Shown one piece after another: positions 471 through 61,282 of a stretch of 64,000 nt of DNA. The notes below the pieces were generated by a model. That model was given only the letters and a program-made list of their open reading frames with translations. It searched no databases and was not told where the DNA came from. The stretch spans positions 65,038,001-65,102,000 of the forward strand of contig NC_043000.1 in NCBI RefSeq assembly GCF_006345805.1, given 5' to 3'. A program made the position numbers and the translations under genes. This stretch comes from Octopus sinensis (Eukaryota). Within the stretch, counting starts at the first letter, position 1; every line of letters starts with the position of its first letter.

Positions 471-849
471 ATCTATATTTAACATGTTCGTGTACACACA
501 AATATAAAAAGACTTACGCTGCGGTAAATGCCTGGGAAGAAAATTTTTTTTGTAAAACTGCCGTTCATAAATTTGCTGACAAAACTTAACACACACCAGC
601 AAATTTATTGTTTACTGTGTATATATAAGAGCGGTAGTTCTTAGTAGACTATGGACGATAGATTCCTTGTTGCTGATGAAACGTAACGACGCAGAAACAC
701 GCGTCCTACAATCTGATGACGTAATTCACGGCTAACTCGGCGTGTTTTTACATACATTCTCTGTAAGGAGAATTTCTCTTCCTAGATACTTAACGTCGTG
801 ATTGTCTTTCTATGTTTGAAGGTACACGGACATGTTAAAAATATAAATG
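471..849 (+). mobile_element. Short Penelope pLTR-like element with partial inverted ends, TATA-like box and hammerhead motif
   Basis: 471-513 (catctatatttaacatgttcgtgtac...aaagac) is an imperfect reverse complement of 804-849; tatataag at ~622; hammerhead motif at 667-711. Confidence 0.55.
667..711 (+). ncRNA. Minimal type-I hammerhead ribozyme motif (slightly degenerate)
   Basis: ttgttg-CTGATGA-aacgtaacgacgca-GAAAC-acgc-GTC-ctacaa; stem I ttgttg/ctacaa has 1 mismatch; palindromic ACGCGT stem III; GUC triplet; weak stem II (cgt/acg). Confidence 0.65.
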
Positions 850-1318
850 CACACAACCTTATTTTAATCATGACTGCCTAGTGTGCCTTTAACTAATAGA
901 ATTCTATAATGGGATTTGAAGCCTATTTATCAAAACTTTATTTGCTTAAAATTATCCGAAGGAAAAGAATTGGCTTCCATATCCAGCGATTGCAGATTTA
1001 AAATCAAGCCCGCATACATAACGGACATAATCGACACTGTCGGGTTGGTCAAATGGGTATTTACAGATTGGTATTAAGTTTAGCTGCGTGTTGTCCCACA
1101 ATAAGCCAACTCCGAACGTTGTTAAAATGTCATTAGTTTTTATCGAATATTATTATAGCAGAGTAGTGTGGTGTGTTAGAGACGAATGAAGTTTGCAATT
1201 CCATAACAAACAGATGGGATTAAATCACGTGAGAGGCGGGAATAATGTTCTGACCATCTTAGTTGAAGAATCTTTTTAACTCGGAGGTGAACTTCATCCA
1301 AGGAAAACTTGTCGATAT

Positions 1319-1931
1319 TATAACGAACCTAGTGTGAGTATATCTTCTCTTGTACTTTCGGGGTACAAGAAAGCAATCACTAGCCGTTGCTTTAATAATC
1401 CAGAATTCTACCAGTCAGAAACAACAAGACGCAGACGTAAATAATATATATACTACTTTATTCTCTAATGTGGTAACAGTAACAATAAGTGGTTATCTGA
1501 TGTCCTTGGTTCTGGGCGCGCAAGGCTGAAAGTTAATCGATTGTAATATTTACAATGTTCAGCCGCTAAAAACAGAACGGGTTAAAGATGGCGGCGAACA
1601 ATGGAGACGATGTTGGTCTGCAACAATTTGGTTAAAGGCCTTTTGGTAAGGTGCTGCTAGAATCAAGTCCAGACGGAGAGAAAATATTTCGTGACCGTCG
1701 CCTTCAGTCGCTGCTGTCTCAAGTCCCCGCTGACTGCTGCTAGTGGTCAAACGTTCTACGACCCCCTTGCCTTGGCTAACTACCACGTAGGCAAAAGGGT
1801 CGTGCTTCCGGTGGTTCGCGCATGCGCGAGAGGGCCCTTCCTTTCTGTGCCTTGGTGAAGGCACCAACACTCGCACGCGCGAAATAGAAAATGGACGGTG
1901 CGCGCGCGCGCACCGTTATAGGATCACTACA
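1319..1931 (-). repeat. 3' LTR
   Basis: Copy of 3477-4092; adjacent to the PPT. Confidence 0.9.
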
Positions 1932-3454
1932 AGGCTCCCCTCCAGTGCGTACGCACGAAGGAAACTTATTGTAGTGACTGCAAAACTCAAGGTGGATACC
2001 AGATAATCAAATAGCACACAATATAATAAAATGGCAAAATTTATAACATACACAAGAAATTTACTAAAGGAAAAAGAGAAAAAATACTCAATGAGCAAAA
2101 ATCAAGAGTGCATGCATGAAAGTGTATACGTCACAAAGTATAAACCCTTCCGCTGAAAGGAGCGGAGGGAAAGCAAAACTCACAGTCAATGAACCTAGGC
2201 GAAATTAAAATCCAACTTCTCTAAAGGTGGTTGATCTTGCAAAATAACAGTTAAATCAATTGCTGCAGGAGAGGAAATGGAATTGACAGAAGCTCGCTAG
2301 TAACACAAAAGGCAAAAGTGCAAACATGCTGGTGTGATGCGCGACACAGATAATTTTCTGTTAATTACGTGACCAACAGTGGTCTAACAGGGAAAAATAA
2401 TTACGCCTAAACATGGCGCAGCGCATGTGAACATCCGACTTCTATGAGTCGGGAAAAGAATTAAGCTAACGCAAACGTGTTGCAAAAAACAAGGCAATAC
2501 ACGTGCGAAGCAAAAGGCGCATGAAATGCAATAGTGCTTGCCAGACCGAAAAACAGCAATGAATATGCCAGTGGTTGAGCGATTATATGCCTCGTTCGTA
2601 CAGGAACAAAGGTATGGCATGCTGGCGCGTTATAATGGACAAACAACCCTCTCTATGTATACGTGACCCCTAGGGTCTATAGAAATGAGGGGTGTCCACA
2701 AAAGGCAAATTTAGCATGGAAAAAAAAACAAGCGAGAAAAGCATGTGTGACGTATGTATGTGAGAGATAGCATTTATGTGTGTGTACGTGTGTGCGACAG
2801 AAATACATACAAGGTGAATGCGAGCAAAAATAAATACAGCGCATAGAAAAAATGTCTCTCGGGGCTATTCCAGACAAGAGTTAATTTACCAGTCTGTAAT
2901 AGCCTGATGCACAATAGCAGTTCGTTCTGTAACAGAATGTTGAAATCACAAATGCAGATGCCGGTTGAACACAATGTGTAGCGGTTGTAGCTTCGATGCT
3001 GTGACATGTTAAATCGTTACAGAAGAATCTCGCAGATAGACGGTGCTGTTAATCCTTGGTGTGCATATGCACATACAGCGTGCACGCTAAAGTTCCGCGA
3101 GTTGCTATGTACATCTTGTGGAGGTCGACGGTGTTGAAAGGCGACGGTGGTGGTGGAAGGCGACTGTAGTGGACTTGAGACAACATCGTTCTTAGTGATG
3201 ATGGCGACGAAGATAACGACGACGTGAAGTAGAAAGACGACGATGGCGATGACGAAGGTGGAGAAAAGGCATCGAATATATGATGGCGTCCGTCATCATG
3301 GCTGTAGAATAAGAAAGAGGCTCCTTCTACAACTGTTTGTAGTGGCCGGAAACAAATCGTCGAAAGATGATGACTGCGTAGAGTTAAATCGTGTTCCGAC
3401 TTCGCAGAAAAACTGGATTTCTTTGTTGTTAAGTGATCTCCGGTTTTAGACTAG

Positions 3455-3475
3455 AATCACGTCGGGGGTCCACCA
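3455..3475 (-). promoter_or_regulatory. Primer-binding site, tRNA-Trp
   Basis: Plus-strand aatcacgtcgggggtccacca vs the tRNA-Trp 3' end AATCACGTCGGGGTCACCA (two extra bases); 1 nt from the LTR edge. Confidence 0.85.
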
Positions 3476-58676: not shown

Positions 58677-59589
58677 TGACACATACGCTTGCACATACAC
58701 ACACAAACACATCACCCCCCCCCCACACACACACACAAACGCACACGCACACACACATACACACACACTGAGTTTTTAATATAAGCGTTTGTTTAGAGTG
58801 TGACGTGCATCACTAAAGAAGGCAGGAAAAGCAATATGAAAGGAAAAGGAAAATCGAAATGGAAATGCAGAAGAAAAAATTGAATCAAACCGCGTTAATG
58901 CGAAACTGTGCCAACCGAATACCGTGCACACGTATACACTCATTCTCACCCCAAAGAGGTGAATACGCTTCGCTGATAAGATCTAATAAAATCTGTTGCT
59001 GTAACCAGCTCACATTAAAAGCAAGATCCATTTCAAACTGCAGTGTCTTTTTGTTTTCAGAGATTTGAAATAGTTGTTATTATTAAAGTTATCTCTTCTC
59101 GGATGTTGTTTTTAGATTTAGAACACTTTGAACCCACCCTCACAAGCGGCGGTTTTTATACTAGCAAAAAAAACTCAACTAATACACGTTTTTCAACTTA
59201 CTATATACACACACTCACAAGAGCGCACGCGCACACATATGTAGATATGTATGTATGCATGCATGCATGCATGTTGTATGTATATATGCATGTATATATG
59301 TATGTATGTATATATGTATGTATGCATGTATGTATGTATCTATGTATATATCTCTGTATAAAGACATGCTCCAAACTTTAGATTTATACATATAATTTTC
59401 CCTGTTAAACTTTCACCGATTGTCGGAGTAATACTATTCACACTAAGTTTCTTTGTCTTTCGTCGCTTTTGATTTTATACTTGAATCCGTCGCTCATCAT
59501 ACACACACGCATATATATATATATATATTATATATATATATATATATATATATATATATATATATATACATAATATATAATATATATAT

Positions 59590-60243
59590 ATATATATATA
59601 CATATAAATTATATATTTTTATGTACATACATATATAAGGAATACTAGGAACTCTACAACAGTCACTCACACACACACACACACACCACACACACACACA
59701 CATATATATATATATATATATTATAAATTAGGGTATCTACGAGATACCACCATGCTGAAAATAGCAGCCATGAACCGACTCTAAAACCACCTTAAGTTTT
59801 CATATAGCAACATGGAGAAAAGACAGAGAGACAAGATGAAACTAGTAAAAAATTACTGGAGAATTCTAGATCCCGGATTTCTGACTTTGCGTTTAGAAAT
59901 GCTTTGCCTTGTCAGTAGATATATATATATATATATACATATAAATTATATATTTTTATGTACATACATATATAAGGAATACTAGGAACTCTACAACAGT
60001 CACTCACACACACACACACACACACACATATATATATATATATATTATAAATTAGGGTATCTACGAGATACCACCATGCTGAAAATAGCAGCCATGAACC
60101 GACTCTAAAACCACCTTAAGTTTTCATATAGCAACATGGAGAAAAGACAGAGAGACAAGATGAAACTAGTAAAAAATTACTGGAGAATTCTAGATCCCGG
60201 ATTTCTGACTTTGCGTTTAGAAATGCTTTGCCTTGTCAGTAGA
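59590..60243 (+). repeat. Tandem duplication, ~325-340-bp unit bounded by (TA)n
   Basis: catataaattata...gccttgtcagtag at 59601-59918 and 59938-60242; differs only in microsatellite lengths. Confidence 0.9.
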
Positions 60244-60407
60244 ATATATATATATATATATATATATATATATATATAATATATATATATATATACATAA
60301 ATAAAGTGCAGACATGACTATGTGACCCACTTCGCAGGAGAAATATCTCCTACGATAACCCGGACCGACCGATATCTTGTTAGTGAATTTGCAATATATA
60401 TATATAT

Positions 60408-61282
60408 AAGCCAATTTGCAGTTGAAAATGCACTTAAATTTGAAAAACTTGTAATTGTCTTAAAATAAATTTATTTGCATATATACCAAACTAGTTTCAA
60501 CAATATTTTTTGTTTATCAATAGTAAAAAATTTAGAATTATGAATTAGAAAAACATGTTTAAATGTTTTAATGTTGACAAGTTTAAATGTTCATAATAAA
60601 CAAATTTAGAATTATGAATTAAGAAAACATGTTTAAAAGTGTCAACGTTGACAAGTTTAAGTGTTCATAGCAGTCAATAATATAAAAACTGTTGATCAAC
60701 TTGTTTAAATTTACAAAATTCAGCGAAAGTTCCTGCACACGACGGAAAGAGAATCACAGAAACTGTAACCAAATTCCCCTTTTTTTACTATCTTCATTTC
60801 TCCCTTGTTTTTCTCCTTCTTAATTCAGTATGACTGAAACTTTGATTATATTCATTTCTTGATGACTACTACTACTAACACTATAAATGTTTCAGTCGTA
60901 CTGAATTAAGAGGGAGAAAAACAAGGGAGAAATGAAGATAGTAAAAAAAAAAGGGGAATTTGGTTTACAGTTTCTGTGATTCTCTTTCCGTCGTGTGCAG
61001 GAACTTTCGCTGAATTTTGTGAATTTAAATAAGTTGATCAACAGTTTTTATATTATTGACCGTTATGAACATTTAAACTTGTCAACATTGAAACTTTTAA
61101 ACATGTTTTTCTAATTCATAATTCTAATTTTTTACTATTGATAAACAAAAAATATTGTTGAAACTAGTTTGGTATATATGCAAATAAATTTACAAGAAAA
61201 TTTTTCAAATTTAGGTGTATTTTCAACAACAAATTTGCCTATATTTTTTCTTGCGTGGAAATACACCACGTCTTTTGTTTTA
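60408..61282 (+). mobile_element. Long foldback element (family P9) with AT-shifted hammerhead motif in both arms
   Basis: 60408-60840 pairs with 60889-61240; ~40-nt tail then (TA)n; tacta-TTGATAA-acaa-aaaata-ttgt-t-GAAAC-ta-GTT-tggta at 61133-61174, mirror 60484-60525. Confidence 0.7.

Follow-up and report, generated by a model that had tools for sequence, protein, structure and literature searches.

Palindromic helix III in hammerhead motifs of several, probably Penelope-like, families within a 64,000-nucleotide window of the Octopus sinensis genome

A window of 64,000 nucleotides (nt) from Octopus sinensis (contig NC_043000.1, positions 65,038,001 to 65,102,000) contains numerous hammerhead ribozyme motifs whose third helix (helix III) had been described, in a sequence-only reading, as palindromic in nearly every family and different in sequence each time. 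The locus raises the question of whether these palindromes reflect selection, and whether they serve the dimerization of identical motifs or a family-specific code that lets only multimeric or cognate transcripts cleave. The motifs are probably type I hammerheads located at the 3' ends of several retroelements that are unrelated to one another and likely Penelope-like (PLEs), in which the palindromic helix III is predicted to permit a double hammerhead between two copies of the same motif; the previous interpretation was, overall, partly supported. The window has a G+C content of 34%, and is rich in microsatellites (143 tandem-repeat rows); BLAST self-comparison of the window showed that short insertions in inverted-repeat form, with arms of 90-550 nt, are numerous.

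Helix III was taken from A15.1 (the last A of GAAA) through U16.1 (the U preceding the cleavage base). All twelve palindromic strings listed previously were present at their positions, and the listed observation was partly confirmed: the palindromic helix III was borne out at the family level, with register errors in three quotes and too high a count of families. The twelve strings represent 10 families, not 11 or 12, because those at 26308 and 39579 belong to one family (elements ~90% identical), as do those at 48321 and 57910 (alignment score 84; shuffle maximum 38). A perfect palindrome in register with helix III was found in seven of the 10 families (23025, 26308/39579, 27228, 43973, 48321/57910, 57624 and 61163), and every perfect palindrome in the window was distinct between families, as had been noted. 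For the other three the quoted string was not helix III itself: at site 697 the actual helix is ACACGCGT, the quote at 699 being shifted by 2 nt; at site 25466 it is ACACATGT in the window copy, the quote at 25468 being shifted by the same distance; and at site 51318(-) it is AACTAGGT, of which the quote at 51320 covers the central 4 nt only.

Other copies were surveyed by aligning contigs from four public runs (three organism labels, none of the runs recorded as RNA) to 25300-26000 at 80% likeness, with 161-2072 contigs per run, contig depth not being equivalent to copy number. Position 25469 was T in ~100% of the depth in all four runs (67, 50, 50 and 10 contigs), and this letter turns helix III of the family at 25466 (family C) into a perfect in-register 8-mer, indicating that the window copy is a private mutant, that the quote at 25468 is an accident of that change, and that the palindrome is perfect in eight of the 10 families at the family level. 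Among the 40 variant rows listed out of 44, none affected the core or stem I of family C. The family at 26308/39579 (family D) carries 10-, 11- and 12-nt versions of helix III: a 2-nt loss that preserves the symmetry accounted for 4, 10, 34 and 0% of the depth in the four runs, and a 1-nt loss, after which the centre is mismatched, for 0.1, 24, 0 and 58%.

The excess of palindromes was assessed with a descriptor that scores the core, stem I and stem II and ignores the symmetry of helix III; it was tuned after the sites were known, and it misses 697, 39579, 40267, 43973, 57624 and 57910. The window yielded 21 matches, of which ~4 are expected to be false, including nine perfect palindromes (seven distinct families or sites), whereas 30 shuffled windows yielded 132 matches (mean 4.4 each) with five palindromes. 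The difference between 9/21 and 5/132 indicates that the pattern is real. An earlier version of the descriptor gave 23 matches in the window against 4-9 per shuffle, with no palindromes among 37 null matches. The centre of helix III is its informative part because a hairpin forces the outer pairs; the central 4 nt were self-complementary in five of the six families whose helix III is even in length and at least 8 nt long (four of six on window copies alone), the chance of a self-complementary centre being 0.075 each (binomial 1e-5 and 4e-4, respectively).

These results bear on the possibility that the palindromes arose by chance or as a DNA-level feature, such as foldback replication or AT-rich noise, and not as selected RNA structure. 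Around four descriptor matches appear in each shuffled window, shuffled sequences fold as well as several of the motifs do, half of the families (5/10) have non-canonical cores, and 43973 and 57624 are weak sites, all of which would fit that explanation. The palindromes, however, lie exactly between the GAA and the NUH site with stems flanking, and the U3-A8 core found in some of them is a published covariant, reported in Schistosoma (PMC4209133) and active in vitro (Perreault et al., PMC3088659). The excess over shuffles and the register restored by the family-level letter largely refute an origin by chance or at the DNA level, which is scarcely credible. Selection, as proposed from the retained self-complementarity, found support insofar as the palindromes exceed chance and the family-majority letter mends family C; a family-specific code as a distinct mechanism was unsupported.

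Stems I, II and III are arranged in type I order, weakly so in A, I, J, K and L. The canonical core (CTGANGA, GAAA and NUH) was present in five of the 10 listed families (697, 23025, 25466, 26308 and 27228) and in a sixth, family G, absent from the list. The sites at 57624 and 61163 (families I and J) carry the U3-A8 covariant core, the former also with GCAA in place of GAAA and with its own stem I at just -0.4 kcal/mol. Single core changes were observed at 51318 (family H, U3.G8) and 48321 (family K, A6>T), and no CTGANGA box was found within 110 nt of 43973 (family F); the core is broken in F, H and K. Two unrelated minimal hammerheads share an identical non-canonical core, CTGTGGA (A6>U), at 44265-44271 and 48298-48304 (+), which may be a naturally occurring variant or may have arisen by decay in parallel. 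Families B, C, G and J (23437/23465, 25412/25462, 56647-56688(-) and 61159) have one additional base separating stem II from GAAA; in B and C it forms an A.C apposition, and for family C no variant is listed there among the public-run contigs.

Additional candidate hammerheads with a U3-A8 core, absent from the previous list, were detected at 9420-9472 (+) and 63699-63730 (-), with descriptor scores of 23.8 and 19.4, and a 4-nt palindrome is present at 63700. In the decayed hammerhead-like motif at 1244-1319 (+) (site 1306), stem II is long and the 7-nt helix III is not palindromic; this site and 56639 are unlisted sites without a perfect palindrome. Sites 3410, 5951, 10809, 15393, 15654, 27915, 29840 and 31993 were set aside as likely chance matches, because shuffles yield ~4 per window, and 38070(-) was dropped since it has no proper stem I. 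The open frame around the latter resembles, we presume, another retroelement.

Unconstrained cofolding of two copies was performed for seven families, with C represented both by the window copy and by the majority letter. A double hammerhead with both cores in register was predicted for three of the seven (B, C-majority and D), with complete junctions, and not for the window's own copy of C. Helices of perfect palindromes reached -3.0 to -20.4 kcal/mol as homodimers before initiation, and helix III hairpins of monomers were never stabilising (0 to +6.4 kcal/mol). Dimer action through the palindromes, already published (PMC4209133, PMC3088659), thereby found agreement in the predicted folds. 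In the computed topology A15.1 of one copy would pair with U16.1 of the other, with the strands of stem I exchanged between molecules in the same way as those of helix III, and each core would presumably cut the partner copy. Selection in active parent elements would likely keep the self-complementarity as the letters drift, and a motif would naturally be paired, in all likelihood, with the repeat that follows it in a tandem transcript. Most copies in the window are dead ends, truncated and often inserted as inverted repeats beside microsatellites. Paired arms place the motifs on opposite strands and thus offer no partners within one transcript; family D does form a tandem, at 38.9-40.5 kb, in which one partner per strand is broken, and the window yielded no tandem pair with both motifs intact on the same strand. 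Selection, we infer, must have acted on parent elements elsewhere.

Folding favours dimers, but the monomer of the 12-nt family (D, 26308) has a complete three-way junction as its minimum free energy (MFE) structure, so that dimers may not be obligate for the long helices and the proposal that only multimers cleave is doubtful for the family at 26308. The monomer of C also has a complete junction, with a 2-bp stem III. It is conceivable, if unlikely, that the longer motifs (helix III of 8-12 nt) act mainly as monomers, like invertebrate retrozymes, with a palindromic loop inherited from dimeric ancestors or kept as an optional boost. Besides the fold of the D monomer, the hairpins of B and D cost just 0.4 and 0.0 kcal/mol, D occurs in head-to-tail units of ~490 nt, its symmetry-breaking 1-nt loss is common in two of the runs, and coral and mussel retrozyme monomers are described as self-cleaving (PMC7229834). 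Such an explanation is at odds with the self-complementary centres of the long-helix families, and a normal hairpin is impossible for helices of 4 and 6 nt.

Specificity was compared between the two exchanged helices of the predicted dimers. In none of 65 cross-family pairs did both swapped stems I reach -2 kcal/mol or better; the median cross-family penalty was 12.5 kcal/mol from the two stems I versus 9.95 from helix III, that of stem I being larger in 40 of the 65. An in-register core was obtained in none of 21 heterodimers, and the strong one formed by C-majority and J (-10.4 kcal/mol) was rejected, as its pairing is out of register. Cognate pairing is thus predicted, yet with stem I swapped as well it has two determinants, and simple divergence of stem I and helix III would suffice to produce it, so that a dedicated code would not be needed.

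It is distinctly unlikely that the palindrome is instead a selected, family-specific pairing code, with co-resident families pushed apart so that only cognate transcripts cleave. The diversity of the perfect palindromes, several of them long (6-12 nt), the median discrimination of ~10 kcal/mol by helix III and the lack of in-register heterodimers are what a code would produce, but stem I alone already excludes all 65 cross-family pairs. In Fig. S3 of PMC4209133, by hand count from the PDF text, ACGU occurs in 29 of 56 family representatives, and in eight of the 11 species that have more than one family, two families share a helix III, some of these pairs being apparently related. Within family D, moreover, three versions coexist and the cross between the 12- and 10-nt versions costs 5.8 kcal/mol, indicating that the palindrome does not track the family. 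The stronger proposal, in which selection extended the palindromes of unusually diverse co-resident PLE-derived families to 6-12 nt and made them diverge into an orthogonal RNA pairing code, is likewise improbable; if true, the code would stop parasitic non-autonomous families from cross-cleaving one another or their autonomous partners, and would mean that retroelements tell self from non-self through their RNA. A code is not needed and adds little, and what has been published on other genomes speaks against one as a general rule; on the evidence, specificity is more likely a by-product.

The assignment to PLEs was based on coding remnants and insertion anatomy. The 46-residue frame at 43313-43450, which had no match in a first homologue search, the Atlas or Pfam, gave seven matches at E<=0.001, from which a repetitive protein was discarded, and a search from one of these matches recovered 39 longer proteins. 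All 12 relatives of more than 600 residues had the endonuclease motif Y[IV]G..R...H and DKT/DKS, with YRDD in 11 and RWK in seven; such motifs, including RWK and DKT, are given as marks of Hydra-clade PLEs (PMC8557442). A profile hidden Markov model (HMM) built from the 39 relatives (464 positions) matched the window at 43316-43483(+) (E 2.7e-8) and 10581-10725(-) (E 1.3e-5), the best reversed control being 0.25, and each of these endonuclease remnants sits a few hundred bases upstream of a same-strand hammerhead-like remnant. In the second case a decayed motif lies at 10182-10216 (-), ~360 nt downstream. The anatomy of the insertions (5'-truncated, inverted or partial-tandem, tailed, with microsatellite targets) matches that of PLEs, and the inverted arms with 3' ends outward and a one-sided tail agree with the published insertion pattern (PMC8557442). 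A microsatellite was found within 300 nt downstream in 17 of 19 motif copies, compared with 37% of random positions, the arms of one insertion not being independent. Three foldback copies of one family lie within (TA)n at 20846-21060, 22533-22820 and 51095-51509, and only the last extends far enough 5' to include the hammerhead. At 56679-56786 (+) a short reverse transcriptase (RT)-like piece (weak, tblastn E 8.8e-4), not recovered by the 464-position HMM, is joined directly to the family G hammerhead, which suggests that G may be an internally deleted PLE derivative.

Several results weigh against dimeric hammerheads of PLE origin. Rfam reported no hammerhead in the window at gathering score, none at E<=10 on 25300-26480 and none among the 150 whole-window matches listed out of 346. 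The active topology was not the MFE structure of the E, J, K and L homodimers (4/7). Distinct palindromes fit a code as well as they fit drift. Within the window, PLE coding remnants accompany only family F and the decayed site near 10200, the other families being assigned by anatomy; and the relatives of the endonuclease remnant had no naming match in Pfam or the PDB, so that the Hydra-clade call is based on motifs. Catalytic hammerhead mutations in an anole PLE were reported to leave in vitro insertion unaffected, and reads terminating at the cleavage position were not seen (Frangieh et al., PMC11167929).

Table 1. Positions of the hammerhead-bearing elements and coding remnant in the window.
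Feature	Position	Strand	Description
Family A type I hammerhead-like motif	665..711	+	Core intact, stem II weak; helix III 697-704 imperfect palindrome (6/8); MFE not a hammerhead fold
Family B inverted-repeat insertion	22892..23735	.	Arms ~97% alike; one duplicated 82-nt tail piece
Family B hammerheads	23018-23081, 23424-23487	-, +	12-nt helix III
Family C inverted-repeat insertion	23965..25590	.	Hammerheads 23994-24070(-), 25401-25478(+); window copies imperfect, family-majority 8-mer perfect
Family D inverted-repeat insertion	25597..26491	.	Tail duplicated; intact hammerheads 25856-25921(-), 26260-26325(+); 12-nt helix III
Family E hammerhead	27130..27239	+	Stem II region 85 nt; palindromic 8-nt helix III at 27228
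Family D cluster	38915..40546	.	Head-to-tail units ~490 nt apart on each strand
Family D cluster hammerheads	39579, 40267, ~39090, ~39775	-, +, -, +	10-nt palindrome; mismatched; core broken; stem II deleted (respectively)
Penelope-like endonuclease C-terminal remnant	43316..43483	+	HMM E 2.7e-8; relatives are RT-endonuclease open reading frames with Hydra-clade motifs
Family F hammerhead remnant	43887..43987	+	~490 nt downstream of endonuclease remnant; 8-nt palindrome at 43973; CUGANGA box absent
Minimal hammerhead L, absent from earlier list	44261..44299	+	4-nt palindrome at 44291; core CTGTGGA
Family K minimal hammerhead	48294..48329	+	4-nt palindrome; core A6>T
Family H hammerhead	51311..51354	-	Between inverted arms 51142-51509; U3.G8 core; helix III 6/8 paired
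Family G inverted-repeat insertion, absent from earlier list	56610..56876	.	Hammerheads 56639(-), 56839(+); helix III odd-length, imperfect
Family I foldback	57453..57710	.	Each arm: U3-A8 core, GCAA for GAAA, 6-nt palindrome (57624 on +); stem I very weak
Family K second copy, more decayed	57905..57940	-	4-nt palindrome at 57910
Family J inverted-repeat insertion	60404..61244	.	U3-A8 hammerheads, 6-nt palindrome, at 60490(-) and 61163(+)

In the family D copy at 39750-39805 (+), stem II is cleanly deleted between both core boxes, either a real deletion or an assembly error. Near-identical direct duplications (95-99.7%) at 1332-1899 / 3495-4060, 11359-12003 / 12135-12777 and 59582-60278 represent either recent tandem duplication or an assembly artefact. 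A fragment resembling the C-terminus of a superfamily 1 helicase (weak Pfam matches, E 0.002-0.02) was found at 30220-30618 (-), which we take to be Helitron-like.

Compared with known systems, there is a close likeness to the minimal and short-helix-III hammerheads in the pseudo-long terminal repeats of metazoan PLEs described by Cervera and de la Peña in 2014 (PMC4209133), who reported covariation, opposite-strand pairs, a palindrome at positions 15.2-16.2 and in loop 3, and genomes that each hold many families, with a consensus in Fig. S3 that marks helix III as "Palind" and of variable sequence. Both sets share the type I order, the palindromic positions, the many sequence families, the U3-A8 variant, opposite-strand pairs 100-700 bp apart and mostly truncated single copies, whereas helix III is often longer here (8-12 nt, against mostly 4-6 nt in that figure) and several families, unlike the set in PMC4209133, contain long insertions in stem II or one more base ahead of GAAA. 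Perreault et al. (PMC3088659), in the legend of Fig. S8, likewise list stem and loop III as palindromic. According to PMC4209133 the minimal monomer showed no cleavage and dimers cleaved at a low level, and a review citing Lunse, Weinberg and Breaker (PMC6765202) states that small PLE hammerheads cleave as dimers; the likeness to these lies in the palindrome of a very short loop III, and the dimeric cleavage reported there is predicted here. With the Hydra-clade PLEs that have a C-terminal endonuclease (Craig et al. 2021, PMC8557442) the window shares RWK/DKT in the relatives of the remnant, canonical hammerheads, (TA)n targeting and inverted arms with tails; unlike them, it holds short remnants only, most families lack a coding remnant, and the likeness to the clade derives from motifs, not phylogeny. 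Family D fits the head-to-tail, non-coding units of ~490 nt with a type I hammerhead of non-LTR retrozymes, which have been proposed to derive from PLE ends (PMC7229834; bioRxiv 10.64898/2026.07.22.740005), although its units slightly exceed the 170-400 nt of retrozymes, are mostly inverted, have no intact tandem pair and are known here from DNA alone. No heterodimer or palindrome-swap kinetics for Penelope hammerheads were found among the papers searched; Lunse et al. and Fig. S8 of PMC3088659 may contain such tests. The dimer design with a palindromic, family-variable helix III is already described, and the window adds members to this known class, with long palindromes of 8-12 nt and a high-copy family present in runs of three organism labels, which together constitute a ready panel for heterodimer and palindrome-swap kinetics.

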